32,032 nucleotides of DNA from a bacterium (lineage in GTDB: Bacteria > JAJRZV01). Shown here piece after piece: positions 17,158-31,687 of the stretch. Location: assembly GCA_024275095.1 (NCBI GenBank), contig JAJRZV010000108.1, positions 1 to 32,032 on the forward strand. The letters are read 5' to 3'. The position numbers and the translations under genes are program-made. The first letter of the stretch is position 1; the number at the start of each line of letters is the position of its first letter. The notes under the pieces are model-generated. The model ran no database searches. It was not told the origin of the DNA and saw only the letters and a program-made list of their open reading frames with translations.

Positions 17158-17365
17158 GTGAGACTTTCGCTGAGATTCCAGCTTGACCCTGGAGAACTCA
17201 TCCTTCCCCTTTCATACAACCACCTTGTCCAGGCCATGATCTACAGCAACATAGACAACTCCATAGCTCACTGGCTCCATGACAGGGGCTTTGCTTTTGG
17301 TAAGCGGAGGTACAAACTCTTCACCTTCTCAAGGCTCCTGTCAAAAAAACGGCGGCTCAACCGGG
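17158..17365 (+). pseudogene. cas6: 5' stub (about 70 codons) of a cas6 gene
   Basis: LPLSYNHLVQAMIY...LHDRGFAFGKRRYKLFTFSRL matches the N-terminus of the intact cas6 at 28472 (YNHILQGFIY...LHEKGYVYGKRRFKLFTFSRL). No C-terminal G-loop. Confidence 0.9.
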
Positions 17366-17898
17366 ACATACGTGAGGACAAAAGAAGGCATGTGGTGGTT
17401 CCTCATAAACGTGATGACTACTTTTCCAGATTCACCCTCTCTTGCCACAGCACGTTTTCACTTTCTGCGAAAGAAGGAATAAAAGCCCTTGAAAAGGCTT
17501 ATGAAAAAGCAAAAAGCCTTCACTCAAGCTCTTTTGAAGGTCTGGCTACCCTGCTCACAGATAATGGGTCTACATTCATCGCAAAACAGTTCAGGGACTT
17601 TCTCAAAAAACACTTTGAAAACTTCTTCAGGCACATCAAGGTGAAATACAGATCACCTGAGCAAATTGGAGTGATCGAGAGATTTCACCAGAACCTGAAG
17701 CAAGAAGCCTTCTATCCCGCTGAAGTGCAGAACGTACTTCACCTGATAAACACGGTGGAACACTACACCTGGTACCCGGGCTCGCGCAGGCCCCCCTGGG
17801 CATCAGGACTGAGAACACCGGCAGAGGTTCATCTGAATAAATCTTTTCACGAGATCAGAAAATTGGGCTTTGACTCAAATGTTACGGGATATAAAACA
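17366..17898 (+). mobile_element. truncated IS3/IS481-like element: rve integrase C-terminal part plus probable right terminal inverted repeat
   Basis: TYVRTKEGMWWFLINV, then a 1-nt frameshift near 17414, then DYFSR...LLTDNGSTF...SPEQIGVIERFHQNLKQE...GLRTPAEV. Ends ...CAAATGTTACGGGATATAAAACA, resembling an IS3-family CA-3' end. Confidence 0.8.
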
Positions 17899-17918
17899 TC
17901 CATCCAGGAGATGCACGC

Positions 17919-18124
17919 ATGAGAAGAAACTCTCTCATGTTTTCCAGGGAAGTTGTTCCGCTTTTTCCTGGACCAATGCACAAACAGGCAGGATTTATCC
18001 GTCAGGAACTCCCCGCAGATTGCTCCATAGATATTCTTGTAAGAACCTCGGAGCAGATTAAAGAAAGAATTAAACTTGACGATTTTTCATCAAAAAGATT
18101 GTGTCTCAGGGAATAGAACTATGA
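17919..18124 (+). pseudogene. C-terminal remnant of a minimal nucleotidyltransferase (MNT antitoxin)
   Basis: IRQELPADCSIDILVRTSEQIKERIKLDDF; restoring one T in the run at 18083-18087 gives FIKKIVSQGIEL*. Its TGA then overlaps the HEPN ATG (ATGA). The GS..G..D.D N-terminus is absent. Confidence 0.65.
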
Positions 18125-18343: not shown

Positions 18344-20056
18344 GTGGAAGAGATTTTGATGAGCATTAAAAATTTTTATAAAAGTTATTTAATGATCTCC
18401 AATCCTCATAAATACCAGGAGTTTACGTGGGAATGTATTAAAAGATTAAACTTTCCCCTTTTTATAAAAGCACCCACTGGCTCAGGAAAGACAGAGGCTG
18501 TGCTGGCACCGTTTCTGTCACAATTTATTGACAACAATTTTACTATCGCTCCAAGGATGATATATGTTTTACCAATGAGAGTTCTGGTTAATTCTCTTGC
18601 TGATAGAGTTAGACAATACACCCGAAGAATAAATCCTCATATTTCTGTGGAGGTTCAGCACGGGGATGTTCCTAATTCCCCGTTCTTCATGGCAGACATA
18701 ATTTTTACCACTCTGGACCAGTTCGTCTATGGCTTTGCAAGGGCAAGCGGACAGGTGGGAAGGCATATAGATATTCCTGCAGGCGCCATTGCATCTTCAC
18801 TGGTGGTTTTTGATGAGGCCCACATGTACAGAGATGAATTTACATTTTCAATTATGAGGGCTGTAATGGAGATATTATATAAGAGCAATATTCCTTTTGT
18901 TGTAATGACAGCAACCATGCCAGAAACTCTTGAAAGAAGCCTTTTTGAAAATATCAATATGCCTGAAGATTGCAAAATATCTGCTTCAATACCTGCCAGT
19001 AACACGCTTGACTTCTATCTTGAGAAAGGACCTTTATATTCTGATGATGAAGTGAATATTCCTGAGGTAATTTTAGATAAAATCAGAGAAAAGAAAACTT
19101 TAATCGTTGTCAATCAGGTTAAAAGAGCACAGAAGATTTATGAAGATATTAAATTGAGGCTTAATCTTAACGACAAACAAATTGTTTTACTGCATTCACG
19201 GTTTACAAAAGCAGATAGAAAAGACCATGAAGAACAAGCAATTTCGTTAATCCCGCGCAAAAAGGATGGGAAAATTGTAATCCCTGAAGGCGTAGGAATT
19301 GTTGTCTCAACGCAGGTTCTCGAGGCAGGCATTGATTTTTCGGCAGAATTTTTGCTGACTGAACTTGCCCCTGCTGATTCACTGGTTCAGAGAGCTGGGA
19401 GATGTGCAAGATATGAAGGCGAAAGGGGGGAGATGGTAATTTTCCCGGTGGATGGAAAAGACAGGAATCATCTGCCTTACAAAAAAGAGCATTTAGAAAA
19501 AACGCTTGAGTGGTTGAAAAGAAATGAACAGTTTAACATTAAAAATTTTAATGAAGTTTGCTCTTTTGTTAATGAAACACTTGACTATCAGGCTAATGAT
19601 TATGAAGCAAGGGATACTTTGATTGACCTCTATGAGTGTGTTCTTTATGCAGATAGCAAACCAGATAATATTCAGGTGAGAAAAAGCAAACCTGTAAGAA
19701 TATTAGTTGTAGATTTTTCTCTTGGTATTGAAAATAAAAAATACAGGAAAAAGCAAAAAGACGAAATAGAAGAAATAGTAGAAAATTCGATAAAGAAAAC
19801 AAACATTCATGAAAATACTTTTGATACTGATATTGGGGTAGCATGGTCATTGTATAATAAAAAATTACTTAAATGGGAGTTAAAATGGGAACTTGATAAA
19901 GAAAAAAAGAAAAATTGGAAACTAATCTTTATAAAAAAAGATAATCCTGATGAAGAAGATATCAAAATAAGCCCTTTCAAAACTTATATTTTGAATGCAG
20001 AGAGCAACTATACTTCAGAAAAAGGAATAATTAACGATGACAGCTTTATTATCTAG
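18344..20056 (+). CDS. cas3: CRISPR-associated helicase Cas3' (no fused HD domain)
   Basis: APTGSGKT, YVLPMRVL, TTLDQ, FDEAH, MTAT, LLHSRF, STQVLEAGID, QRAGRCAR. Confidence 0.96.
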   Translation: MEEILMSIKNFYKSYLMISNPHKYQEFTWECIKRLNFPLFIKAPTGSGKTEAVLAPFLSQFIDNNFTIAPRMIYVLPMRVLVNSLADRVRQYTRRINPHISVEVQHGDVPNSPFFMADIIFTTLDQFVYGFARASGQVGRHIDIPAGAIASSLVVFDEAHMYRDEFTFSIMRAVMEILYKSNIPFVVMTATMPETLERSLFENINMPEDCKISASIPASNTLDFYLEKGPLYSDDEVNIPEVILDKIREKKTLIVVNQVKRAQKIYEDIKLRLNLNDKQIVLLHSRFTKADRKDHEEQAISLIPRKKDGKIVIPEGVGIVVSTQVLEAGIDFSAEFLLTELAPADSLVQRAGRCARYEGERGEMVIFPVDGKDRNHLPYKKEHLEKTLEWLKRNEQFNIKNFNEVCSFVNETLDYQANDYEARDTLIDLYECVLYADSKPDNIQVRKSKPVRILVVDFSLGIENKKYRKKQKDEIEEIVENSIKKTNIHENTFDTDIGVAWSLYNKKLLKWELKWELDKEKKKNWKLIFIKKDNPDEEDIKISPFKTYILNAESNYTSEKGIINDDSFII

Positions 20057-20768
20057 CCCCGAAGAGGAATATAGATTTCATATAGAAAGATGTAAAGAAA
20101 AATTAAACCTCCTCTTCCATGTATTTGAACTTACATTAAAAAGGATATTTGGAATAGGGGATAATAAAATGCTAAAAGATGCTGTTTTAAATATGGTTCT
20201 TTATCATGACCTCGGTAAGTTAACAAAAAGATGGCAGGATAATGTTGGAACATCTCGTAAACTCCCTTCTCATGCACCCATAGGAGCAGGATATTTATAT
20301 AAAAAATTTACTAAAGAAAAGATCCCTGAAGATTTGAAGAATGCGATTTGTTTTGCAGTAGCTATTCATCATACTGACAAGGGACTGCTTGGAGATAACA
20401 TAGAAAAACCCGATGTCCAGGCTATATTAGAAGATGTAGCAAATAATTATGGAGAAATAATATGGGCAGATGAAGCAAAAACTTTAGGAGATGAATATTT
20501 TGATTCTCTTGCAGAGAATTTAACAATTTATGATTTAAAAGAAATGGCAAGAGGATTAAGAATATGGGCACTAGGGGATTCTATTATCCATCAACATAAA
20601 AAACGATTACAGGCAACCCTTATGCACCATATATTGAAATTATGTGACATTTCTGCCGCTTTGGAGAGGAAAGCATATAAAAAGAAGGAAGAGGATTACT
20701 ATGGTGGGTGGTTGATGGTGGAGGGGATAAAAAAATACATGGATAATGTTAAACAAAGAGGTGTTTGA
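20037..20768 (+). CDS. cas3'': CRISPR-associated HD nuclease Cas3'' (standalone)
   Basis: FH...YHDLGK...SHA...IHH...LKLCD pattern; overlaps the cas3' end. Split cas3 is typical of type I-A. Confidence 0.92.
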   Translation: MTALLSSPEEEYRFHIERCKEKLNLLFHVFELTLKRIFGIGDNKMLKDAVLNMVLYHDLGKLTKRWQDNVGTSRKLPSHAPIGAGYLYKKFTKEKIPEDLKNAICFAVAIHHTDKGLLGDNIEKPDVQAILEDVANNYGEIIWADEAKTLGDEYFDSLAENLTIYDLKEMARGLRIWALGDSIIHQHKKRLQATLMHHILKLCDISAALERKAYKKKEEDYYGGWLMVEGIKKYMDNVKQRGV

Positions 20769-22724
20769 ATGGCAAAAGAATTTATCCCTGAACTGCATGA
20801 TATTGGTAAGCTTATTGACAAAGAGAAATTAAAACAAGAGAATCTTCAATGGAGCAGACATACTTTTGAAGATTTTGATTTTAACCAGGCGGGCTTTGTA
20901 AAACCAACTTCCCCTTCTTGGTGGGGCCAATATCATCACAGGATAGATGTAAATAAGGATTTAAATGACTGGACACATATTGATGGTAACCATAAACCCG
21001 ATCTATTCTTATTGATATTGGCTGATCATCTTGCTTCTTCAATTTCACGAGCCTTACCACAACTGGGGAGTGCAGGAGAATCGGACAGTATTCTAAAACT
21101 TTGGAACCATGGTTATTCTGAAAATCAACGAAATAAAGGTAAACATTGGGCAGCATTTAAAACAAAAGATGATTTAAAGAGTATGTTTGAACTTATTGAC
21201 AGCATTACATCATATAAAGATTTTTTAGATGCGTATCGAGAGAATCTTCTCTTAACCCCGGAAGATAAATCTATACCAAGAAATATCACTTCTCTTTTTA
21301 CTCACATTAAATTGGTAGGAAAGATATATCGAGTTCTCAAAAGACATATCTTAATTAAAAATAATGGCAAGAGAATTTTATTTGAACTATCTGGAGAACA
21401 AGTAAAAAGTATTAGAGAAACAGAAGGGGGCAACAGAACAACTGGAAACCAAAATGTTGATAAAGGCAGATGGCAAGCAAGATTTGTCAAATGCCACATA
21501 AAGTTCCCACACTCTTTTGTTAGACTTCAAGACATCAATCTATTAGTTAAAAGGAATAAATTGGTTTCTAAACTTGTCGATAATTATGAGGATTATGTGA
21601 TATTCTATAATCCCGACTTCTTATTTCTTTTTCTGCCAATGGGGATAGAAATAGAAGATATATTCAAGGAGCTTCTAAATCTTAAGTTCTTTATTGACTA
21701 TGTAGAAATAATCGCAGATCTGGGCATTCTACGATCAAATCTTGACAGCAAAATCATCAGAGCAAGAAGGGATAGAGATATTCAAACTCTTAATGTCCTT
21801 CAAAATAGAAAATCAAAGGTTTACAAAAAGATACTTTTACCTGAATTTCCAGAGAAAATTTATCCCCCTATCTGTGACATTTGCCAGAGAGAACGAGCTA
21901 CAGAGAGAGCAAAAGAGAATATAAGAGAATGGCTCTGTGATAAATGCCAAAGTATAAGGGATATGGATGAGCCTTTTAGAGAATATGCTGAATGGACTGA
22001 TGAAAAAGTGGTCTGGTTAAAGTTTAATTTCAATCAGGATAAGTTAGAAAAATGGTTACAGGAAGCCTTTGAAGAATACATAGATAAAATACCAAATTTA
22101 GAAAATGGTCAAGTATTGAAAGAAGAATTCCGTTCCTTGGCACCACAGATGGATTTTATTAACGATTATGAAGAGATGCTATTAAATTTTTGGCAACGGT
22201 GTTCAGAGGACGATATTAAGAGACCGATATCAAATTATAATGAGATTGCAACATTTAAATATTCAGGACTCCTTATAATGAAAATAATAACACTCTTTAT
22301 AGAGCTACATGATGCTTATTTCCTCGACTGTAAAAGTAACACAGATTCTCCTATAAGCTTATCTTTGAGTATTGCTCATCATAAATATCCCATTCGTGAA
22401 CACTGGAGATATTTTGAGAATCCAATAAATTTTTTAAATATTAGGTATCATAATGTTTTTAAAGAGAACTATACTAAGGAAGAAGCTAAAGAGATAATAG
22501 AAAAATTAATAACCTCTGAAAAAGTCTCATCGCATTTTCTCCATAACTTGATTGCTTTATATGAGGAATTAGATTCTGAACTTCATATTGCAATAGAATT
22601 ACTCAACAATAGGAAGAAATATCCAGAGCCTTTTGAATTATATTCAAGGCTTGGCATCCCGCCGGTAAAATTCCTAAATTTTTGTAGAATAGCGGAGGAA
22701 GAAAAAGATGTTCTTCAGACTTAA
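20769..22724 (+). CDS. cas10: Cas10-like large subunit with HD domain and degenerate Palm (type III-F-like)
   Basis: N-terminal LHDIGK, QYHH, LADHLASS, TSLFTH (compare Csm1 SLYDH), zinc finger CDIC...CDKC, Palm2 tail LSLSIAHHKYPI. No GGDD; 651 aa. Confidence 0.82.
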   Translation: MAKEFIPELHDIGKLIDKEKLKQENLQWSRHTFEDFDFNQAGFVKPTSPSWWGQYHHRIDVNKDLNDWTHIDGNHKPDLFLLILADHLASSISRALPQLGSAGESDSILKLWNHGYSENQRNKGKHWAAFKTKDDLKSMFELIDSITSYKDFLDAYRENLLLTPEDKSIPRNITSLFTHIKLVGKIYRVLKRHILIKNNGKRILFELSGEQVKSIRETEGGNRTTGNQNVDKGRWQARFVKCHIKFPHSFVRLQDINLLVKRNKLVSKLVDNYEDYVIFYNPDFLFLFLPMGIEIEDIFKELLNLKFFIDYVEIIADLGILRSNLDSKIIRARRDRDIQTLNVLQNRKSKVYKKILLPEFPEKIYPPICDICQRERATERAKENIREWLCDKCQSIRDMDEPFREYAEWTDEKVVWLKFNFNQDKLEKWLQEAFEEYIDKIPNLENGQVLKEEFRSLAPQMDFINDYEEMLLNFWQRCSEDDIKRPISNYNEIATFKYSGLLIMKIITLFIELHDAYFLDCKSNTDSPISLSLSIAHHKYPIREHWRYFENPINFLNIRYHNVFKENYTKEEAKEIIEKLITSEKVSSHFLHNLIALYEELDSELHIAIELLNNRKKYPEPFELYSRLGIPPVKFLNFCRIAEEEKDVLQT

Positions 22725-23322
22725 AGTTCATATAGATTCTATAGTAATTGGAGAAAGAATTAAAGGCGGAACTTATAGGCCTTGCCTGGAAACAATTCCT
22801 TCTTCTACCATCAAAGGTGTATTCAGGCACTTCTTTGGTAAAGATGTTAAGGGAGTAGGCCATTTTGAAAAAGGAACCTATGAGCAAAAAGAGCTAATCT
22901 ATTCTGTGAAGGATAAATATCTTGAAGCTGCTAAAATGCCCATTATTTCTAGTTATTTAGCACCAAAGAATACAGAAAAAATAAAGGCAGATATTTTTAT
23001 TGTTAAAGAAAATCATATCACTAAAGACATGTTTGATAACTTTATCTTTACAATGGGGGGATTGAAAAGCAGAGGTTTTGGTAGATCTGAGGTAATAAAT
23101 GTTGAAGAAGTGACACCACAAATTAAACAGGGATGGTTAAAAATCAGGATATTTGAAGATGAAGTTGAATATTTTGCGATACAAGCTTTGTCTCCTCTTT
23201 ATGGCTACCTTTTTCATCCGACTGATTTTGTTTCTGGTTTTTATAAAAGAGCATTGTTCGAAGGAAGTCTTGTAAAAGCACCAGAGATATTTTTAGAAAA
23301 GGAGAGCTATTATGATGAGTAA
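22708..23322 (+). CDS. Cas5-group RAMP of the III-F-like module
   Basis: IPSSTIKG and G-loop MGGLKSRGFG; directly after cas10. Confidence 0.75.
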   Translation: MFFRLKVHIDSIVIGERIKGGTYRPCLETIPSSTIKGVFRHFFGKDVKGVGHFEKGTYEQKELIYSVKDKYLEAAKMPIISSYLAPKNTEKIKADIFIVKENHITKDMFDNFIFTMGGLKSRGFGRSEVINVEEVTPQIKQGWLKIRIFEDEVEYFAIQALSPLYGYLFHPTDFVSGFYKRALFEGSLVKAPEIFLEKESYYDE

Positions 23323-23869
23323 AATGGATTTAATCCTCCGAAAGGTATTAAACGATCCAGATATCTTCTGGATAAGGAAAGAAATTTTTAAGAAGGACGA
23401 ATGGAGCGATTTAAGAAAGGATTTAGGAAAGCCAGAAGAATTTAATAAAAAAGTAGATATCAAGATACAGAAGTTAGAAGAAGAGAAGAATAAGGAACAG
23501 GATAATAAGAAAAAGAAAACAATTGAAGCTGCGATAGAGCAATGTAAAGGGATTAAAACCACTTTAGAACAAAATCCATATCTTGTTAAACAACTGTTTG
23601 ACAATCTTGAGTCCTTTGGAATAGTTCAAAGTAATCTTCCTAATATGGATGATCATGGGAAGATAATAGAGAGACACAACTTTTCTATAGTTGAGCAATT
23701 TTTCTTGGACAAAATAAAAAGAGAAAATAACCCACACAAGAAAAAGGCTCTTAAAAAAATTCTAGGATATTTTAAAGAACTGGCTGAATTTAATCAATCC
23801 ATTTTAGAAATAGCCTTTTTCGTTAGAAAACTCGATTCATTACAGAAATTATGGGAGATATCAAAATGA
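23312..23869 (+). CDS. alpha-helical small subunit, Cas11/Csx26-like
   Basis: 185 aa, charged and helical-looking with no enzyme motif. Assigned by its position between the Cas5 and Cas7 RAMPs. Confidence 0.55.
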   Translation: MMSKMDLILRKVLNDPDIFWIRKEIFKKDEWSDLRKDLGKPEEFNKKVDIKIQKLEEEKNKEQDNKKKKTIEAAIEQCKGIKTTLEQNPYLVKQLFDNLESFGIVQSNLPNMDDHGKIIERHNFSIVEQFFLDKIKRENNPHKKKALKKILGYFKELAEFNQSILEIAFFVRKLDSLQKLWEISK

Positions 23870-23899
23870 ATGCATTAAAAGTAACTCTATAATGGAGAA

Positions 23900-24721
23900 A
23901 TGGAAATAAACTTCAAGCAAGAGGGTAAGGTAGAACTATTGCTTTTGCCTATATGTATTACTGTTGAAGAAGGCTCTTTTCTCCATATAGGAACGGCTCC
24001 TTCACCCCTGACAGAAAAGAAAGGAGCCATTTTTAAAGTTGATAGAATACCGGTGATTCCTGCTACAAGTTTCAAAGGTGCTTTGAGAAATCAATTAGAA
24101 TTGCTGTTGATAGAAAAACTTACTGAACTCAAGGAAAGCCTTAAGTTGGATGATGACAATATTCTTAAGCCCTGCGTTCCAGCTCCAAGACCTACCAGAG
24201 CTGAAAAAGAGCTAATAAATTCAGGAACCTATAGAGGAGATCATTGTGAAATTCGGTCAGATGAAGAAAAGATAGAGGTAGGCAATTCAGGTATTTGCCC
24301 TGTTTGCTACTTTATGGGAGCAACAGGAATAATGGGTTTCTTAAGATTTACAAACTTTTATGCTGAAGAAGGAGATTGGTTAATTGATCAAATTAACATC
24401 AGAATAGATAGAAAAACAGGCACTGCAGCACATCGAGCGAAAGTTGATGGTGAACAGGTTAAACCGGGCACAATTTTTACTGGAGCAGTTGAACTAATAA
24501 ATAAAACACCTCAAGGTTTTGAATTTGGACACCCAAGAAAGATAGGCAACGTTATAATAGATAAATGGTTAGAAAAGCGGGCTGACCAAGATAACAATCG
24601 CAGAAAAAAGATCCTGATTGAGAAAATTCTCCTCCCCGCTATTCAAAATGTTAAACTTTTAGGTGGGCAGAAAAGTAAAGGAGCAGGAAAAGTTAAAGTT
24701 GAAATAATAATAAATGCTTAA
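23900..24721 (+). CDS. Cas7-group RAMP (Csm3-like backbone) of the III-F-like module
   Basis: LHIG, PVIPATSFKGALR, C..HC..CPVCYFMG, IRIDRKTGTA, LLGGQKSKGAG. Confidence 0.88.
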   Translation: MEINFKQEGKVELLLLPICITVEEGSFLHIGTAPSPLTEKKGAIFKVDRIPVIPATSFKGALRNQLELLLIEKLTELKESLKLDDDNILKPCVPAPRPTRAEKELINSGTYRGDHCEIRSDEEKIEVGNSGICPVCYFMGATGIMGFLRFTNFYAEEGDWLIDQINIRIDRKTGTAAHRAKVDGEQVKPGTIFTGAVELINKTPQGFEFGHPRKIGNVIIDKWLEKRADQDNNRRKKILIEKILLPAIQNVKLLGGQKSKGAGKVKVEIIINA

Positions 24722-24732
24722 AGGATAAAATT

Positions 24733-26169
24733 ATGCTTACCCTTTACACCCCGGCAACAGGATTTCCAGATTTGGAGATAAAGATTGCTTATGGATTGGC
24801 GAGGGTGGGGATTGAGGCTGGGGCTGAAGTTTCTATCGTGCCACAGATTGGTTTTTATGAAGTTGTTTTTAATTCACTTCCTCATGTCTCGTCTCTGAAT
24901 AAAACATTTCATATTCTTTTGAAACGTATTCTTTCTAATAAAAAATTTTATAATTTAGGAGTCAAAGCAAGGTATAGAGCTGTATATCTTCCAGTTGATA
25001 TTAAAAAGAAAGACTTTAAAACTCATCTTTTAAAAATTGACCTGTCCAGTTTATATAAGCCTGCTAACATAGAAAAATATTTTGATTTCACGAGAGATAA
25101 AGCGTGTCATCATAAAAAAAATCCCAAATTTGGATCAACACAAAAGAATGCAAAAGGATTAGGGGGGTTGATACTACTTGCTTCTGTTCATGCAGGCAAA
25201 CCTCAGTATAGAGACAACAGGAAAAGAGATTTAAATTTGGGGTTGTGTGAAGCATGTGGATATCTCAATGTATTGGGGAAAGAGTCCTTTTCCTTTGAGA
25301 TTCAATTAGGAAAGGGTAAAAATAGAAAGTCTGTATGGGTTCTCCCTATCCCGAATAAAAAATTAGAAAACAAAAATATCCTAAGTTTGCTATCTCTCCA
25401 GAAGACATTACATAATTTCTGGCTTTCTGATTTGATACCTCTAAGGACTTTTGCTGTGGGATTATTAGCCAAGATTCCTTCACTTAGCGATATAATTGAA
25501 GAGTTAGAATTGAGTTTTCACCTCTCGTTAGTTTCAAAAAATAATAGAGGTGACACAGTTGTAGAACAAACAGCAGTTGTAAATACAATGCCATTTTCGA
25601 AGTTTATTACAAACTCACCATATAATTCTGTTACTTTGGAAAGATTATTATCAGGTCAACCCAAAGTTCCATCTTTGATTAAAATTGTAGATATACTTGA
25701 GAATAACAAGGGAAAGGATTTACCAACATTCGCCCGCCTCTATGTTCAGGAAACATCATCAGATAACCGGGTAAATCTTTTATACCCGGAAACAACAAAA
25801 TATCTTTTAAAGGAGGTTGCTATGATTGATTCAAAAATCATTGAAAACCCCGCACTGGAGAGTCTCGCAAGGACTCTCCGATATTTTATAAAAAAACGAA
25901 AATATAGTTATGCTGATGACATCAGAAATGCAAAAAAAGAATCCAGAGATTTTGAAGAGACAATTGCAAAGATGTTGAGAGAAGGAAAACTCAGGCTTGA
26001 ACAAGAAGAGATGATTCACCTTCCAGATACAGAAGAAATAAAGGAAGTATTTAAACTCGCTAATGAAGATTTTGAAAGCACAAAAACTGCGCTTGTAATC
26101 CTTGCCTTTTCATTTCCTTCAAGGGATGAAAAAGAGCAAAAAACAACACAGGAGGTCCAAAATGCTTAA
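24733..26169 (+). CDS. cas8a: type I-A-like large subunit Cas8a (Csx9/Cas8a2-like) with C-terminal Cas11-like domain
   Basis: YTPATGFPDLEIKIAYGLARV N-terminus, HAGK...LCEACG zinc motif, position before cas7-cas5. Confidence 0.72.
   Translation: MLTLYTPATGFPDLEIKIAYGLARVGIEAGAEVSIVPQIGFYEVVFNSLPHVSSLNKTFHILLKRILSNKKFYNLGVKARYRAVYLPVDIKKKDFKTHLLKIDLSSLYKPANIEKYFDFTRDKACHHKKNPKFGSTQKNAKGLGGLILLASVHAGKPQYRDNRKRDLNLGLCEACGYLNVLGKESFSFEIQLGKGKNRKSVWVLPIPNKKLENKNILSLLSLQKTLHNFWLSDLIPLRTFAVGLLAKIPSLSDIIEELELSFHLSLVSKNNRGDTVVEQTAVVNTMPFSKFITNSPYNSVTLERLLSGQPKVPSLIKIVDILENNKGKDLPTFARLYVQETSSDNRVNLLYPETTKYLLKEVAMIDSKIIENPALESLARTLRYFIKKRKYSYADDIRNAKKESRDFEETIAKMLREGKLRLEQEEMIHLPDTEEIKEVFKLANEDFESTKTALVILAFSFPSRDEKEQKTTQEVQNA
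25822..26169 (+). CDS. putative internally translated Cas11 (Csa5-like) small subunit, 115 aa, in frame within cas8a
   Basis: AAGGAGGT at 25810-25817 precedes the in-frame ATG at 25822 (Met364). Product MIDSKIIENPALESLARTLRYFIKKRKYSYADDIRNA... looks all-helical. Confidence 0.65.
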   Translation: MIDSKIIENPALESLARTLRYFIKKRKYSYADDIRNAKKESRDFEETIAKMLREGKLRLEQEEMIHLPDTEEIKEVFKLANEDFESTKTALVILAFSFPSRDEKEQKTTQEVQNA

Positions 26170-27100
26170 ATTTGTAACTTTTGCCGTAAAGGTGCAATTA
26201 AATGTGCATGATTTAAACAATGAAGCAGTAGCAGGTAATGTGACTGATATAAGGGTAATGGAGTTTCTTGATGAAAATGGAAAAAGGCAGGAAGCACCTG
26301 CGGTGTCAGGCAGAATGCTCAAACATTGGCATTGTGAAGGAATTAGACACCTAATAATAAGTGGCGAGTATTCCACCATTCCTCTCTGTGCAGGGTGCAA
26401 AGCAGGAGAACCAATAAGACCCGGTATGATTAATAATGGCAATCTCTCTCAAAATTCGGGTATTACAGAAGAGGAAGCTGTTCAAGGTTGTATAGTTTGC
26501 GATACCCATGGCTATTTAATTGCAACACCTGAAACCACGGCGGGGGAAGGTGGTGTCTCCGCACGGAGAAGTTCACGAGTTATGTTCTCATGGCTTATGC
26601 CTGTTATGGGTATGGAAGCAGTTTCTAAACAGGTAATTCATAACAGAGTTTCTGCTGACCCTAAAACAATGATGCCTTTCAACAAATCCTATGCCTCTGG
26701 CATTTATGCTTTTGTTTCTGCTCTTGATGTGGATAGAATTGGACTTGTTGAATTAAATCTTGGAAGTGATAATCCCTATGCAGTGGATGATAACAACGGA
26801 CGAAAAGACAGAATAAAAGTTGCTATTGAGGCATATCGCTATCTTATATCAGGACAGATAGGAGCGTCCCTATCACATGCCATTCCTCATTGGGACCCTA
26901 TTGAGATTTTAGTATGCTATTCTGAAAAAGGACCTTTACCTTTTCCCGTATCGCCGATATATCCTGACTATATTGTGAAAACTCTTGGAGTTATGCCTGA
27001 GGGAACAAGTTTCCTATACACTGGAAAGGATTCCCCTGAGGGAGTGAATAAAAAAGAAAAGATAGATGAAATCTTTAGGGAATTGTTGAACAAGGTATAA
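26162..27100 (+). CDS. cas7: Cas7 (DevR/Csa2 family)
   Basis: LNVHDLNNEAVAGNVTDIR, PAVSGRMLKHWH, CIVCDTHGYL, RRSSRVMFSW, IHNRV. ATG at 26162 behind an AGGAGG RBS. Confidence 0.92.
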   Translation: MLKFVTFAVKVQLNVHDLNNEAVAGNVTDIRVMEFLDENGKRQEAPAVSGRMLKHWHCEGIRHLIISGEYSTIPLCAGCKAGEPIRPGMINNGNLSQNSGITEEEAVQGCIVCDTHGYLIATPETTAGEGGVSARRSSRVMFSWLMPVMGMEAVSKQVIHNRVSADPKTMMPFNKSYASGIYAFVSALDVDRIGLVELNLGSDNPYAVDDNNGRKDRIKVAIEAYRYLISGQIGASLSHAIPHWDPIEILVCYSEKGPLPFPVSPIYPDYIVKTLGVMPEGTSFLYTGKDSPEGVNKKEKIDEIFRELLNKV

Positions 27101-27103
27101 AAA

Positions 27104-27904
27104 TTGCAGGCTCTTGTTTTTGAGATAAGGCTGAATTCACTTTATTCTATTAGACTCCCCTTCACCTGGCAGTCCTCTTTGATCTATCCTGTTCTTCCCC
27201 CTTCCTCAGTTATAGGGCTCGCTGCCAATGCCCTGCAAAGGTATAAAAACAATAAGCATCCCCTTGAATATCTTAAAGAACTTCAAGAGAGGATTGAATG
27301 GGCAGGTTCAAGATTGCTTTTTCCCTGCGTTATAAAGAGTTATACGACTTCAGCTATTACAAAGTGGAAAATTCCCCTGGGTGGAAAGTCTACAAATGCC
27401 CTGGGAAGAGAATTTGCATATAGCAGGGGAATGCAACTTCTTATAATCTATAAAGATGAAGAACTTATTAAAGAGACGGCTTTGGCCTTAAAAACTTCCC
27501 CGATTACAGCTGGAGATAGCGAGTCTCCAGTTTTTATAAACGACGGTCCGTATATAAAAAAGGTTAAAAAATATAATGTAAACAAAGAAGAAACTGTTGT
27601 AACAAATTTTCCTTTTCCTTTTGAACCTCAAAAATTAGAAATAATTGAAGGGAGAGGGTTAGTGTTTCTTTTTCACGAAAAGTGCTTAAAAATTAAAAAT
27701 TTTCCATTGAGAACTTATGTATGTCCTTTGGCGATGGGAAGCAAAAATATAATTTGTCCAGAAACTGTTAAATTAAAATTTAAACAGGAGGCGACAATAT
27801 TTGAGGTAGAGGAAGCAGGTAAAATTGTATTTTTCCCTGCATCAACTGAAGAGTCATCCTGCCCATCTATTAAGAAGAAAGGAGGGGGTAAAAAGAAGAG
27901 GTAA
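27104..27904 (+). CDS. cas5: Cas5, type I-A-like
   Basis: YSIRLPFTWQSSLIYPVLPPSSVIGLAANA, AGDSES. Confidence 0.9.
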   Translation: MQALVFEIRLNSLYSIRLPFTWQSSLIYPVLPPSSVIGLAANALQRYKNNKHPLEYLKELQERIEWAGSRLLFPCVIKSYTTSAITKWKIPLGGKSTNALGREFAYSRGMQLLIIYKDEELIKETALALKTSPITAGDSESPVFINDGPYIKKVKKYNVNKEETVVTNFPFPFEPQKLEIIEGRGLVFLFHEKCLKIKNFPLRTYVCPLAMGSKNIICPETVKLKFKQEATIFEVEEAGKIVFFPASTEESSCPSIKKKGGGKKKR

Positions 27905-27938
27905 CTTTCAGAATGATTTTTGCCTAAATAAAAAGGTA

Positions 27939-28433
27939 ATGCCCCAAGTAACCGGCACACTTATCTGGTATTATTTCATATGCAAGAGGGAGGTGTGGTT
28001 GATGGGTCACGGAATAACTCCGTTCCAGGATAACCCCTTTGTGGAAATAGGGCGCTTGATTCACGAAGAGTCCTACCAGAGGGAAAAGAAAGAGGTAGAT
28101 GCAGGCAATATGAAATTTGACATTATAAAAAAGAGGGATGGCAAAGTTATTGTAGCAGAAGTTAAAAAATCCTCACGATTTATAGATTCTGCCACCATGC
28201 AACTTGTCTTTTACCTTTACAATCTCAAAAAGCAGGGGATTTCAGCAGAAGGGGAACTGCTTGTTCCAAGAGAGAAGAAAAGAATAAAAGTTGAACTTAC
28301 AGAAGATAATATAAAAAAAATTGAGAATGCGATTTCAGAAATCAGGGAAATAACAAACCGCGATATTCCGCCTCCAGTTGTAAAAAACAGGTATTGCAGA
28401 AGGTGTGCATTCAGTGACTTTTGCTGGGCATAA
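27939..28433 (+). CDS. cas4: CRISPR-associated exonuclease Cas4
   Basis: TGTLIWYYFICKREVWL, GRLIHE, KFD, EVKKS, QLVFYLY, CRRCAFSDFC Fe-S cysteines. Confidence 0.95.
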   Translation: MPQVTGTLIWYYFICKREVWLMGHGITPFQDNPFVEIGRLIHEESYQREKKEVDAGNMKFDIIKKRDGKVIVAEVKKSSRFIDSATMQLVFYLYNLKKQGISAEGELLVPREKKRIKVELTEDNIKKIENAISEIREITNRDIPPPVVKNRYCRRCAFSDFCWA

Positions 28434-28471
28434 ACTGGGAACAAATGTGCATTTTTGATATATTATAAATT

Positions 28472-29218
28472 ATGAGGATTAGAATAAATTTTGAAACCAG
28501 TGAAAGTAAAATAGTTTTTCCAGTTCATTACAATCATATTCTCCAGGGGTTTATATATTCCTGTATTGATGATGACCTTGCAGAGTTTCTTCATGAAAAA
28601 GGATATGTTTATGGAAAAAGAAGATTCAAACTCTTTACCTTTTCCAGACTTATGGGCAGCTGTTCATTTGATAGAAACAATAAAAAACTTGTTTATAATT
28701 CTTCAATTTATTTTATAATTGCATCGCCACTCGAAAGTTTTCTTGAAAGTCTCGTGAGAAATATGCTGAAGGGTGGTGAAATTAAGATGAACTCACAGAC
28801 GCTTTATGTTTCATCTGTGGAGGTTCTTCCTTTACCGGACCTGAACACCACTGCTTCAGTAAAGATAAAGATGCTTTCCCCTATAACAGTTTACAGCACC
28901 CTTACAAAAACAGACGGAAAAAAGAAGACATATTATTACAACCCTTATGAGAGGGAATTTGCAGAGCAAATAACAGAAAATCTCAGAAAAAAATATGTAA
29001 TCCTCAGGGGAAATGACGAAGGATTTGTGTTTGAGATAAAACCCAAAAACGTCAAATCCCGTGATGAAAAGATAATAATCTACAAGCAAACCGTCATCAA
29101 GGGATGGATGGGAACTTATACTGTAAAGGGGAGTATTGATGTTCTGAAAACTGCTTACGATACAGGAATAGGCAGCAAAAATTCTCAAGGTTTCGGGATG
29201 TTTGAGATAATTGGTTGA
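28472..29218 (+). CDS. cas6: CRISPR endoribonuclease Cas6
   Basis: YNHILQG, KLFTFSRL, LSPITVY, C-terminal GIGSKNSQGFG. Confidence 0.96.
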   Translation: MRIRINFETSESKIVFPVHYNHILQGFIYSCIDDDLAEFLHEKGYVYGKRRFKLFTFSRLMGSCSFDRNNKKLVYNSSIYFIIASPLESFLESLVRNMLKGGEIKMNSQTLYVSSVEVLPLPDLNTTASVKIKMLSPITVYSTLTKTDGKKKTYYYNPYEREFAEQITENLRKKYVILRGNDEGFVFEIKPKNVKSRDEKIIIYKQTVIKGWMGTYTVKGSIDVLKTAYDTGIGSKNSQGFGMFEIIG

Positions 29219-29227
29219 GGAAAAGAC

Positions 29228-29491
29228 ATGTTTGTAATTATGGTTTACGATGTAAATGAGAAAAGGGTTACCAGGGTTCTGAAAACAGCGAGAAAGTTCC
29301 TTACATGGGTTCAAAATTCAGTTCTTGAAGGCGAAATCACAGGAGCGAAATATGAAAAATTGAAATACGAAATCAAAAAAATCATAAACGAGGATGAAGA
29401 TTCAGTTATTTTTTATATTTTCAGAACAAGGCTTTACACATCAAGGGAAATAATGGGCGTTGAAAAAGGAAAAGAGGAAGTAATAATTTGA
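29228..29491 (+). CDS. cas2: CRISPR-associated Cas2
   Basis: MFVIMVYDV, WVQNSVLEG, EDSVIFY. Confidence 0.96.
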   Translation: MFVIMVYDVNEKRVTRVLKTARKFLTWVQNSVLEGEITGAKYEKLKYEIKKIINEDEDSVIFYIFRTRLYTSREIMGVEKGKEEVII

Positions 29492-29497
29492 ATTTAA

Positions 29498-30493
29498 ATG
29501 AAAAAGACAATTTACATTTTCTCTAACGGAGAGTTAAAAAGGAAACAAAACACCCTTTATTTTGAATCTTCAGACGGTGGTAAAAAATACATCCCGGTTG
29601 AGAATACAGGAGAAATACTTGTTTTTGGAGAGGTAACTATAAACAAAAAACTTATCGATTTTTTATCTCAGCATGAGATTGTTCTTCATTTTTATAATTA
29701 CTACGGGTTCTACTCAGGCACTTATTATCCACGTGAACATTACAATGCGGGCATAATCTTGTTAAAACAGGTTCAGCATTACCTTGATAATGATAAAAGG
29801 AGCATTCTCGCGAGAGGGTTTGTTAAAGGTGCTTTTGAGAACATCCAGAAGGTGCTTCAGTATTATAAAAACAGAGGAAGCGACCTTGAAGATGAAATAC
29901 AGAGAATATCTGAGTTTGAAGACCTGCTTGAAAACGCGAGTTCAATAGAAGAACTGATGGCTTTTGAGGGTAATGTAAGGGATATATACTACAGGTCATT
30001 CAACAAAATAATTAACAATGAAGATTTTTACTTTACAGGAAGGCGAAGAAGACCCCCGGGAAGCAGGATGGATGCTCTTATAAGTTTTGGCAACTCTCTG
30101 CTTTACACATTTTGTCTTTCAGAGATTTACAAAACTCATCTTGACCCCCGGATTGGTTTTCTCCACGCATCAAATTTCAGAAGGTTTTCTTTAAATCTTG
30201 ATATAGCAGAAGTTTTCAAACCAATTGTTGTGGACAGGTTGATTTTTTCGCTTGTGAATAAAGGTATTTTAAAGAAGGAACACTTTATTGATGAGATGGG
30301 CGGGCTTTACCTTGATGAAAAAGGAAGGAAAATCTTTGTTAAAGAAATAGACGAAAAATTAAAAAGCACTCTCAAGCACAGAAAACTCGGAAGGCACGTC
30401 TCATACAGGACATTAATCAAAATGGAACTTCACAAAGTTGAGAAGCATTTAATAGGTGAGGAAATGTATGCCCCCTTTGTAGCATGGTGGTGA
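29498..30493 (+). CDS. cas1: CRISPR-associated Cas1 (I-B HMARI/TNEAP-like clade)
   Basis: YIFSNGELKRKQNTL, LMAFEG, DALISFGNSLLY, LDPRIGFLH, SLNLDIAEVFKP. Confidence 0.97.
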   Translation: MKKTIYIFSNGELKRKQNTLYFESSDGGKKYIPVENTGEILVFGEVTINKKLIDFLSQHEIVLHFYNYYGFYSGTYYPREHYNAGIILLKQVQHYLDNDKRSILARGFVKGAFENIQKVLQYYKNRGSDLEDEIQRISEFEDLLENASSIEELMAFEGNVRDIYYRSFNKIINNEDFYFTGRRRRPPGSRMDALISFGNSLLYTFCLSEIYKTHLDPRIGFLHASNFRRFSLNLDIAEVFKPIVVDRLIFSLVNKGILKKEHFIDEMGGLYLDEKGRKIFVKEIDEKLKSTLKHRKLGRHVSYRTLIKMELHKVEKHLIGEEMYAPFVAWW

Positions 30494-30661
30494 GAAAATC
30501 GTCCAAGTGTGATAATGCAAAAACACCTGGAGATAGACGATAAAACCTAACGCTAAAAAGTTCTGGAAAATCAGGGAAATATAATGTACTATCTATTTCA
30601 GGAAGTGTTATTATGCGTTCTTTGATATTTGAAGATGTTAATAATATAGAGAACAAAATGG
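30494..30661 (+). promoter_or_regulatory. CRISPR leader
   Basis: 168-nt AT-rich non-coding stretch between the cas1 stop and the first repeat. Confidence 0.75.
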
Positions 30662-31687
30662 GTTTGCAGCCTACCTATGAGGAATTGAAATAATATTCGC
30701 TTAAAATTTCAGGAATTAGAACTTCACGTTTGCAGCCTACCTATGAGGAATTGAAATATTTCATGTATATATAGTTCTTTCGGACTCGCCCACTGTTTGC
30801 AGCCTACCTATGAGGAATTGAAATCTATAGAGTCCTCTATGGGGAATTCGCGAGCACTCGTTTGCAGCCTACCTATGAGGAATTGAAATAGGAATATGGC
30901 AAAATACCGGCCTCCAAAGCCGGAGGTTTGCAGCCTACCTATGAGTAATTGAAATCGAGTTCGTCATACCGCCGAGCTACAGCCATCGCCTCGTTTGCAG
31001 CCTACCTATGAGGAATTGAAATTCGCCTCGATAATCCTGTCGGGCTCTCCGCTGCTCGGTTTGCAGCCTACCTATGAGGAATTGAAATTCAAGTATTTTT
31101 CTCATAAGCCTACCGACTATCACAGTTTGCAGCCTACCTATGAGGAATTGAAATCTGAGAGGAATAAAGCTTACAACGGGAGCGAATCTCTGTTTGCAGC
31201 CTACCTATGAGGAATTGAAATCGCATCCATTCTCTGACGCATAAGGGCATTTAATCCGTTTGCAGCCTACCTATGAGGAATTGAAATTAAACTTGCTGTT
31301 CATGGTCTGTTCTAAAAGTCAGTGTTTGCAGCCTACCTATGAGGAATTGAAATCTACTGGCTCTGGGTCGGCCTTGAGAACCTTTTTGTCCGTTTGCAGC
31401 CTACCTATGAGGAATTGAAATATCTCACACCCCACCCTCTTGTGTTGATCCGGGAGGTTTGCAGCCTACCTATGAGGAATTGAAATATGAGAGGTTTAAC
31501 GTCCGCCAGCCCTGTCGTGGGAGTTTGCAGCCTACCTATGAGGAATTGAAATCATCAGCTGGTGCTTCTTCTTCAGTTGAAAGCGTCAGTTTGCAGCCTA
31601 CCTATGAGGAATTGAAATTGCTGATGAGGGGACGATAATATCGGGATACTTCCGCGGGTTTGCAGCCTACCTATGAGGAATTGAAAG
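30662..31687 (+). CRISPR. CRISPR array: 16 repeats of 30 nt (GTTTGCAGCCTACCTATGAGGAATTGAAAT), 15 spacers of 35-39 nt
   Basis: Repeat starts at 30662, 30728, 30795, 30860, 30926, 30993, 31059, 31125, 31192, 31258, 31324, 31392, 31457, 31523, 31589, 31658. Repeat 5 has G>T at 30946 and the last repeat ends in G. The ATTGAAAN 3' end and upstream leader indicate plus-strand transcription. Confidence 0.99.

Follow-up and report, generated by a model that had tools for sequence, protein, structure and literature searches.

The contig JAJRZV010000108.1 of the bacterial genome assembly GCA_024275095.1 was analyzed over a stretch of 32,032 nucleotides (nt) (positions 1 to 32,032 of the forward strand; hereafter the window, to whose full length all coordinates refer), and gene identities were assigned by PADLOC, TIGRFAM/NCBIfam and Pfam profile searches. 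The window carries a CRISPR-Cas locus of 13 tightly packed cas genes, all on the + strand (18344-30493), followed by a leader and an array of 16 repeats, in the order cas3'-cas3''-[cas10f-cas5f-cas11f-cas7f]-cas8a/11-cas7-cas5-cas4-cas6-cas2-cas1-array. The four bracketed genes, which form the cassette studied here, are cas10f, the large subunit of subtype III-F (20769-22724, 651 amino acids (aa); PADLOC PDLC01558, 5e-175, residues 3-640), cas5f, the III-F Cas5-group RAMP (22708-23322, 204 aa; PADLOC Cas5_IIIf, 5.9e-72), cas11f, the III-F small subunit (23312-23869, 185 aa; PADLOC Cas11f PDLC01223, 1.5e-48), and cas7f, a single Cas7/Csm3-like backbone subunit (23900-24721, 273 aa; PADLOC Cas7_IIIf, 2e-99; Pfam RAMPs, 1.6e-17). 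As read in the sequence, the stop codon of cas3'' (TGA, 20766-20768) abuts the ATG of cas10f at 20769, and 11 nt lie between the stop codon of cas7f (24719-24721) and the ATG of cas8a at 24733; both junctions are as an earlier note on this DNA had described them when it placed the cassette between cas3'' and cas8a. Within the cassette, cas10f and cas5f overlap by 17 nt and cas5f and cas11f by 11 nt, while cas11f and cas7f are separated by 30 nt.

The four matches to PADLOC III-F profiles (1.5e-48 to 5e-175) are far beyond chance. Pfam returned nothing for Cas10f, Cas11f or Cas8a, and NCBIfam gave only a sub-threshold Csm1 match for Cas10f (6e-5), so that without the PADLOC profiles the module would pass for a set of hypothetical proteins. 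The gene order cas10-cas5-cas11-cas7, reportedly the defining one in the 2020 classification, is shared by the related loci described below. One point speaks against typing by the large subunit: its PADLOC profile is labeled 'Cas10a|Cas10f', and Cas10 alone cannot separate III-F from III-A. Based on identity and architecture together, it is nearly certain that the four genes constitute a genuine and intact III-F effector cassette (Cas10f, Cas5f, Cas11f and one Cas7f) within a type I-A-like operon. The profile search on each open reading frame (ORF), which the earlier note had proposed, thus yielded both the III-F and the I-A-like assignments, and the note's four-gene typing (an HD-positive, cyclase-dead Cas10 with Cas5, Cas11 and a single Cas7, in this order) was borne out by the profile matches and the motif tally.

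Three other assignments were tried and rejected. Subtype III-A was ruled out by the absence of GGDD and the presence of Cas11f, which is given as the marker that CRISPRCasTyper uses to split III-F from III-A. For type I-D, with whose Cas10d the earlier note had allowed that the 651-aa protein might group, no Cas10d match was obtained at E<=0.01, even though the same library detects Cas10d at 7e-70 in another locus of our survey (L021:6655-7281); the protein's only matches are the Cas10a|Cas10f profile and generic Cas10 profiles. Finally, type IV Cas7 profiles reach 3e-8 to 1.3e-3 for Cas7f compared to 2e-99 for Cas7_IIIf, and Cas10f has no match to a type IV large subunit, which led us to reject type IV-C. 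No CARF/SAVED effector responding to cyclic oligoadenylate (cOA) was found in the locus, where every + strand gene between 18344 and 30493 has a core Cas assignment; the ORFs in the rest of the window were scanned in part.

Cas10f combines an N-terminal HD nuclease domain, containing the motif E-L-H-D-I-G-K, with a CxxC...CxxC zinc finger and degenerate Palm domains that lack GGDD. Across 60 homologs, the HD residues H10, D11, H31 and D86 are each conserved in 60/60, H56 in 56/60 and H57 in 55/60, and the four zinc-finger cysteines are found in 59-60 of the 60. The aligned Palm2 site reads Y-S-(G/P)-x-L, with a GGDD-like motif there in 0/60 members; a loose GGDD-like tetrapeptide occurs elsewhere in 6/60, each time at a different, non-homologous position. 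Judged from this alignment, loss of the cyclase is a stable trait of the whole family and not a local lesion. An AlphaFold2 model built on the homolog alignment (pLDDT 90, pTM 0.91) depicts Cas10f as a full-length Csm1-like Cas10: the top 50 Foldseek matches in the PDB are all Csm1/Cas10 chains of III-A complexes (best 6ifn_A, E 1.6e-11; probability 1.00, TM ~0.4-0.5, 10-13% identity). The PDB sequence search with the Cas10f profile returned the Cas10 of III-D as sole relative (8bmw_K, E 2e-4). The family is rare, with 234 matches at E<=1e-3 and 70 at E<=1e-30 among 1.84 billion representatives; the closest relative found is 61% identical, and most of its named members belong to thermophilic bacteria and archaea. 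No homologs were found in the plasmid or phage collections searched, nor in any of 40 genomes related to that of the window, a kinship at domain level only and therefore uninformative on vertical inheritance.

The Cas7f family profile matches the Cas7 of III-D (8bmw_H, 2.5e-12) and Csm3 (6muu_C, 1.9e-7). In the alignment to Csm3 of Thermococcus onnurineus, the Asp of the G-G-I-D-N-P loop, regarded as the residue that catalyzes the cleavage of target RNA, is aligned with the second Lys of the T-E-K-K loop, corresponding to Lys41 in the window. We compared this loop in 18 aligned sequences, 14 from the main clade and four from a deep clade (L019, L020, L026 and L027). Position 41 is Lys in 12/14 main-clade sequences and Asp in the other two (L008, L010), and the deep clade keeps a Csm3-like I/M-D/E-N loop. 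With moderate confidence, the aligned loop position suggests that the main III-F clade has stopped cutting target RNA in the canonical way.

The host operon begins with a split Cas3, whose halves occupy separate ORFs overlapping by 20 nt and both exceed curated cut-offs: cas3' encodes the helicase (18344-20056, +; TIGR01587 cas3_core, 8e-64, 216 bits against a cut-off of 102; Pfam DEAD and Cas3-like_C_2) and cas3'' the HD nuclease (20037-20768, +; TIGR01596 cas3_HD, 2.3e-15). Cas3'' is conserved among the nests described below, with invariant histidine and aspartate positions in the alignment. Downstream of the cassette, Cas8a and Csa5 (Cas11a) are both present, fused in a single ORF (24733-26169, +; PADLOC Cas8a, 3.2e-87, residues 1-343; PADLOC Cas11, 2.3e-64, residues 346-473; TIGR01878 Csa5, 2.5e-29, over cut-off), and the homologs of this fusion in L004, L005 and L031-L034, where whole, align over residues 1-464 up to 1-478 of 478. 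The fusion is followed on the same strand by the type I cas7 (csa2/DevR; 26102-27100; Pfam DevR, 3.7e-49; TIGR01875, 7.3e-31, over cut-off), which probably begins downstream of its first TTG, and by cas5 (27104-27904; TIGR02593, 2.2e-05, over cut-off), cas4 (27825-28433; TIGR00372, 2.7e-31; PADLOC Cas4b, 8.7e-60), the only intact cas6 found in the window (28472-29218; TIGR01877, 2e-43; PADLOC Cas6b, 3e-82), cas2 (29228-29491; TIGR01573, 1.9e-11) and an I-B-type cas1 (29498-30493; TIGR03641, 1e-138). We call the operon 'I-A-like' because the Csa2 model TIGR02583 (1.1e-37) stays below its cut-off with 129.8 bits against 212.6, even though the DevR models pass, because PADLOC Cas5a reaches only 8e-4 compared to 7.1e-11 for generic Cas5, and because Cas1, Cas4 and Cas6 all score best against I-B-labeled models. 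The guanine-cytosine (GC) content of the cas locus is 0.32-0.40 compared to 0.45-0.55 in the flank, which encodes ClpB and a glycosyltransferase, and the locus looks like an acquired low-GC island.

Two further features of this region were observed. The strongest terminator-like hairpin of the locus (25856-25880, +; 10 pairs followed by a T-rich tail) is located inside the cas8a-cas11a fusion, about 90 nt into its Csa5/Cas11 part. Upstream of the operon, the ORF at 17158-17922 (+) starts with 62 residues of a Cas6 N-terminus that share 47% identity with the intact Cas6 (28472-29218), and the remainder matches integrase-core (rve), IS481 and IS3 transposase models, all below cut-off; its GC content (0.41-0.50) is closer to that of the host flank than to the 0.33 of the island. 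An insertion-sequence remnant seems to have cut short a cas6 here, and the ORF may be what is left of a CRISPR locus that resided in this genome earlier. The matching position upstream of cas3' is taken by an intact cas6 in L003 and L004.

The array (30662-31687, +) lies behind a leader of 168 nt, computed from the end of cas1 to the first repeat (30494-30661, +), and consists of 16 repeats of 30 nt ending ATTGAAAT (with a final G in the last copy) and 15 spacers of 35-39 nt. The 8-nt sequence ATTGAAAT is the usual CRISPR RNA (crRNA) handle of subtypes I-A, I-B, III-A and III-B, and repeats ending in ATTGAAA(C/T) were found in 9/9 arrays examined beside III-F loci (the window and 8 others). 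When compared to the host genome and the fetched III-F loci, the 15 spacers gave only chance matches of 13-18 nt. The assembly (2.45 Mb, 97% complete, 136 contigs) contains a single Cas10f, a single RAMP-family match, which is cas7f, and a single Cas1, and the array repeat occurs in no other place. As this is the sole system in the assembly, the crRNAs of the III-F proteins must come from this array and this cas6, unless another source lies in the missing 3%. It is therefore strongly implied, as the earlier note had proposed, that both effectors share one Cas6, one adaptation module and one array, which suggests that a single CRISPR array supplies two distinct effector complexes.

The co-transcription of both modules, also proposed in the earlier note, stands less firmly. 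The cas genes of the locus overlap or are at most 38 nt apart, and the scan for terminators detected no terminator-like site on the + strand between 18680 and 25856; from these two observations we infer a single transcript. Against this, the promoter and terminator scans performed no better than on shuffled sequence (43 promoter-like sites compared to 45.7 expected and 16 terminator-like sites compared to 11.5), so that spacing alone is what the operon structure rests on, and both the expression of the cassette and its loading with crRNA are predictions.

Related loci were surveyed by tblastn with the window proteins, clustering of ORFs and PADLOC annotation of the cluster representatives, and the flanking ORFs were profile-scanned in part. 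The survey comprises 36 places, namely the window, 29 loci from one-genome-per-species contigs (among the matches listed; 599 pattern stretches, 29 of them confirmed) and 6 metagenome loci, whereby the genes common to L002 and L034 do not differ, so that the two represent one sequence sampled twice. No Thermotogae record is among the 29 confirmed contig loci listed. At 20 of the 36 places, the cassette is contiguous with type I effector genes and shares their strand, while only two are clearly stand-alone; with the deep clade set aside, 19 of 32 places are nested. The earlier note had treated the nest as a peculiarity of the window, and this view had to be given up: the comparison of synteny that it suggested revealed the I-A-like order cas3'-cas3''-[III-F]-cas8a/11-cas7-cas5 at 8 further places (L002-L005 and L031-L034; 7 distinct sequences), and thus at nine including the window. 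Some of these nests are cut by contig ends, as L003 stops in cas5f with its downstream side unseen, L002 stops in cas8a/11, and L033 and L034 show the downstream side only. Eight cassettes are nested in I-B operons, where they follow cas5b (L007, L017), cas3 (L012, L030), cas6 (L022) or cas1 (L026) or lie between cas7b and cas5b (L010, L015). One follows cas7a-cas5a-cas1 (L024), and two are in I-D operons, with the order Cas10d fragment, Cas7d, Cas5d, [III-F], Cas3d in L021 and Cas5d followed by the cassette in L016. At the other places, type I genes are nearby but divergent (L023) or separated by an array (L008, L027), the short flank holds only cas6, adaptation genes or an array (L013, L019, L020, L028), no cas gene was detected in the flank available (L006, L009, L011, L014, L018, L025, L029), or the contig ends within the cassette (L035, L036). 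The window hence exemplifies a broader habit of III-F cassettes to live inside type I operons, of which we found no description in the literature searched. The habit has its exceptions, which weigh against it: nesting is not obligatory, since no cas gene was detected around L011 and L014, for each of which 8 kb or more of sequence is available on either side, and five further loci have none detected in the one flank available. In the genomes of L006, L009, L011, L014 and L018, Cas6 is encoded elsewhere in 5/5 and Cas3 over cut-off in 4/5, which is weak support, as such genes are common in thermophile controls.

The positions of the cassettes bear on the possibility that the cassette is coupled to the neighboring Cas3, forming one machine instead of two parallel ones: the III-F complex would recruit Cas3'/Cas3'' in an I-D-like manner, or the HD nuclease of Cas10f would degrade the single-stranded DNA (ssDNA) reeled out by the Cas3 helicase. 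Indeed, in type I-D a Cas10-like large subunit with an HD domain can work with the Cas3' helicase. Furthermore, the stop codon of cas3'' abuts the start of cas10f in the window, the cassette lies directly after cas3'' in 7/7 I-A nests with a visible upstream side (the window, L002-L005, L031 and L032), and cas3 is its immediate neighbor in two I-B loci (L007, L012) and one I-D locus (L021). Its position varies elsewhere, however, as it lies between cas7b and cas5b in L010 and L015, is set apart by cas6 in L022 and by cas6 and cas1 in L026, and follows cas1 in L024; it is divergent in L023 and split from the type I genes by an array in L008 and L027; and stand-alone cassettes exist (L011, L014). 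Moreover, every type I module present has an HD nuclease of its own (Cas3'' in the window, the N-terminal HD domain of Cas3 in L007 and L012) and so does not need Cas10f. We therefore regard direct coupling as improbable. Both functional roles that the earlier note had raised for the III-F complex, covering targets that escape through their PAM and cooperating with the split Cas3, are speculative. A complex prediction for Cas10f with Cas3'' scored 0.00 in two runs, which gives no verdict and counts neither way.

Several observations concern individual loci of the survey. In L021 (6655-16116), where the cassette lies between cas5d and cas3d, Cas10d, Cas10f, Cas7f and Cas3d are each split into at least two ORFs or alignment pieces; assembly errors that cause frameshifts, or else genuine decay, could account for this. 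A gene for a 1157-aa type IIG restriction-methyltransferase-like protein lies just upstream of the cassette in L009 (5645-9118), which has no flanking cas genes, and suggests a defense-island setting. In three composite loci (L012:2758-3741, PADLOC WYL 1.2e-49; L021:857-1849; L026:383-1357), the type I genes are preceded by a gene for a WYL-domain protein, a possible regulator of composite operons. The four deep-clade loci show 23-31% Cas10f identity to the window and have no member of the Cas11f cluster, in place of which L020 and L027 carry a long, 339-aa Cas5f-like ORF. This clade may be a different III-F-related subtype, such as III-H (named in PMC12669027), and perhaps not strict III-F.

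To relate these places to each other, we built a maximum-likelihood tree from 23 full-length Cas10f sequences, leaving out the fragments L017, L018, L021, L024, L025, L028 and L029 as well as the loci L031-L036. The five I-A-nested sequences form one starred clade (95/92), in which the window is sister to the other four, and none of 500 label shuffles was as clustered. Because the record titles of its members span Bacteroidota, Nitrospirota and WOR-3, we conclude that the composite I-A/III-F locus has moved between phyla. Among the I-A nests, the Cas10f proteins of L002-L005 and L031-L034 are 52-61% identical to that of the window, and III-F gene identity tracks I-A gene identity (r = 0.86; 15 non-independent pairs from 6 loci). 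All reading frames of the I-A nests are intact at 50-70% identity, and judging from these sequences the two modules have evidently diverged together under selection. The best explanation, and in our view a probable one, is that the whole composite locus is inherited and transferred as a single unit. These data also address whether the cassette is a non-functional passenger or decaying remnant hitch-hiking in the type I operon. The catalytic residue of Cas7f and the cyclase site of Cas10 are both lost, which is readable as decay. Yet the four frames are intact in the window as well as in the diverged I-A nests, the HD motif and zinc finger are invariant or nearly so across the 60 homologs, and divergence of the III-F genes keeps pace with that of the type I genes without exceeding it, which makes this reading extremely unlikely.

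Outside the I-A clade, close Cas10f relatives occur in different hosts, such as L015 (I-B) with L016 (I-D) (100/100) and the stand-alone L011 with L012 (I-B) (99/98), which shows that the cassette has changed operons repeatedly. One could go further and view III-F not as a free-standing subtype but as a mobile four-gene 'second warhead' cassette that resides in operons of type I (I-A, I-B or I-D), is compatible with every system whose crRNAs carry an ATTGAAA(C/T) handle and works with the host system, its HD nuclease destroying, for example, ssDNA exposed by Cascade R-loops or the Cas3 helicase. We consider this broader proposal rather unlikely; if it were true, the composite operons would represent an extant transitional stage between type III systems, which sense RNA, and type IV-C systems, which sense DNA.

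Taken together, the overall explanation that we favor, and consider probable, is that the III-F cassette provides a second crRNA-guided effector beside type I-A; that it acts as an independent effector sharing the crRNAs is quite likely. One transcript would cover both modules, and Cas6 would cut the repeats into crRNAs with an 8-nt AUUGAAAU 5' handle. The same crRNA pool would then load the I-A Cascade, acting with Cas3'/Cas3'', and a Csm-like III-F complex, in which Cas10f-Cas5f would sit on the handle, Cas7f would form the backbone and Cas11f the minor filament. Base-pairing of the III-F complex with its target would switch on the HD nuclease of Cas10f as the sole catalytic output of the complex. 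Given the dead Palm site and the lack of a CARF/SAVED effector in the locus, the complex is predicted to make no cOA signal, and given the Lys at the position of the catalytic Asp, it would probably not perform Csm3-type cutting of target RNA.

As to what triggers the complex, our preference for transcripts is tentative; double-stranded DNA (dsDNA) is a possible trigger to which we give somewhat less weight, direct coupling to Cas3 is improbable, and the remainder falls to other possibilities. RNA is favored because all characterized type III systems are triggered in this way, and it agrees with the type III ancestry of the cassette. With an RNA trigger, the pairing would bring a clear benefit, as the cassette would serve as a second line that is independent of the protospacer-adjacent motif (PAM), backing up the PAM-dependent type I effector. 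Three points weigh against an RNA sensor. First, a Lys in place of the catalytic Asp of Csm3 would be unusual for an RNA-sensing type III complex and is expected of a DNA-binding, type IV-like one. Second, type I adaptation gives no reason for spacers to be antisense to transcripts, and an RNA sensor could thus use only some of them. Third, 'DNA?' is the entry for the III-F target in a review table that was taken over from the 2020 classification.

The last entry also fits the possibility that the III-F complex senses dsDNA like type IV-C, by recognizing a PAM, forming an R-loop with the shared crRNA and aligning the Cas10f HD nuclease such that ssDNA, and perhaps RNA, in the vicinity of the invader is cut collaterally; it would then be a second DNA effector with a different killing mode. 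According to PMC13676074, IV-C complexes, which consist of Cas5, Cas7, Cas11 and a Cas10IVc with HD but without GGDD, bind dsDNA flanked by a PAM, whereupon the Cas10 HD domain cuts ssDNA and RNA in a collateral fashion. As a proposal, its authors derive type IV from III-F, the Cas10f of which has a similar architecture; the Lys of the main-clade Cas7f fits the loss of the Cas7 RNase in type IV that is described there. In addition, the cassette is almost always found in association with type I systems that target DNA and have Cas4-Cas1-Cas2. Nevertheless, the profiles and the fold are type III/Csm-like, with type IV Cas7 profiles reaching only 3e-8 and the best structural matches of Cas10f being Csm1. 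PAM-reading or strand-wedge residues were not identified in the proteins of the window, and less would be gained from a second DNA effector that depends on a PAM than from one that does not, providing a weaker selective rationale for the recurrent pairing. In this specific form, dsDNA sensing is conceivable but doubtful, and we retain an RNA-triggered second effector as the preferred reading.

In the literature searched, III-F is a recognized but uncharacterized subtype, of which the window is a new divergent member. Our searches retrieved no experimental study of III-F and no paper on III-F cassettes inside type I operons, although such contexts may be tabulated in the 2020 classification or in supplements, and a term search of the text of the 2025 classification paper returned nothing on III-F nesting. 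The significance of the locus lies in the typical embedding of the cassette in type I operons, including a conserved I-A/III-F composite spread across phyla. With a Cas7 seemingly devoid of the RNA-cutting residue and a Cas10 with the HD nuclease alone, it offers a testable picture of how one array may arm two mechanistically different effectors from a single operon. These compact natural loci (~12 kb plus array) are suited to the question of whether III-F senses RNA or DNA, and hence to the transition from type III to type IV, and if the HD nuclease were a target-activated collateral nuclease, the complex may serve diagnostics.

Compared to known III-F systems, the cassette has the gene order reported for the type locus, and it shares with them the same four proteins, a Cas10 with HD but without the cyclase motif, the single Cas7 and the absence of cOA effectors (PMC11229360). 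It differs in being inside an I-A-like operon with its own adaptation module and array, and not in a separate locus; according to PMC12669027, most III-F loci lack arrays, and a review table gives four genes for the III-F type locus. The likeness to type I-D consists of a Cas10-family large subunit with HD beside a separate Cas3' helicase, but the window has no Cas10d match and contains in addition a complete Cas8a-based Cascade and a separate Cas3'' HD; in the true I-D operon of L021, the cassette sits beside Cas10d and does not replace it. Type III systems can back up type I through shared spacers, as described for the I-F and III-B systems of Marinomonas mediterranea (PMC5576922), and crRNAs are shared between I-A, I-B and III-B in Pyrococcus furiosus (as cited in PMC13676074). 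In these cases as in the window, one spacer repertoire serves a PAM-dependent DNA effector and a second effector, with a proposed benefit against escape mutants. However, their modules are in separate operons or loci, whereas here the type III genes are interleaved in the type I interference operon, and the type III complex of the window would lack signaling and probably target-RNA cleavage. Type IV-C resembles the cassette in its Cas10-like, HD-positive, GGDD-negative large subunit with a zinc finger, in the loss of the Cas7 RNase and in being a minimal module that borrows crRNAs (PMC13676074); the same 2026 study describes crRNA sharing between type I, III and IV-C modules and names III-F as a likely ancestor of type IV. 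The two differ in that the proteins of the window profile as III-F, in gene order, and in that dsDNA and PAM sensing have been shown for IV-C only. Finally, a minority of IV-C loci co-localize with I-A (2) or I-D (5) systems according to PMC13676074, in which IV-C loci are described as mostly stand-alone, while the III-F cassettes studied here reside mostly inside type I operons.

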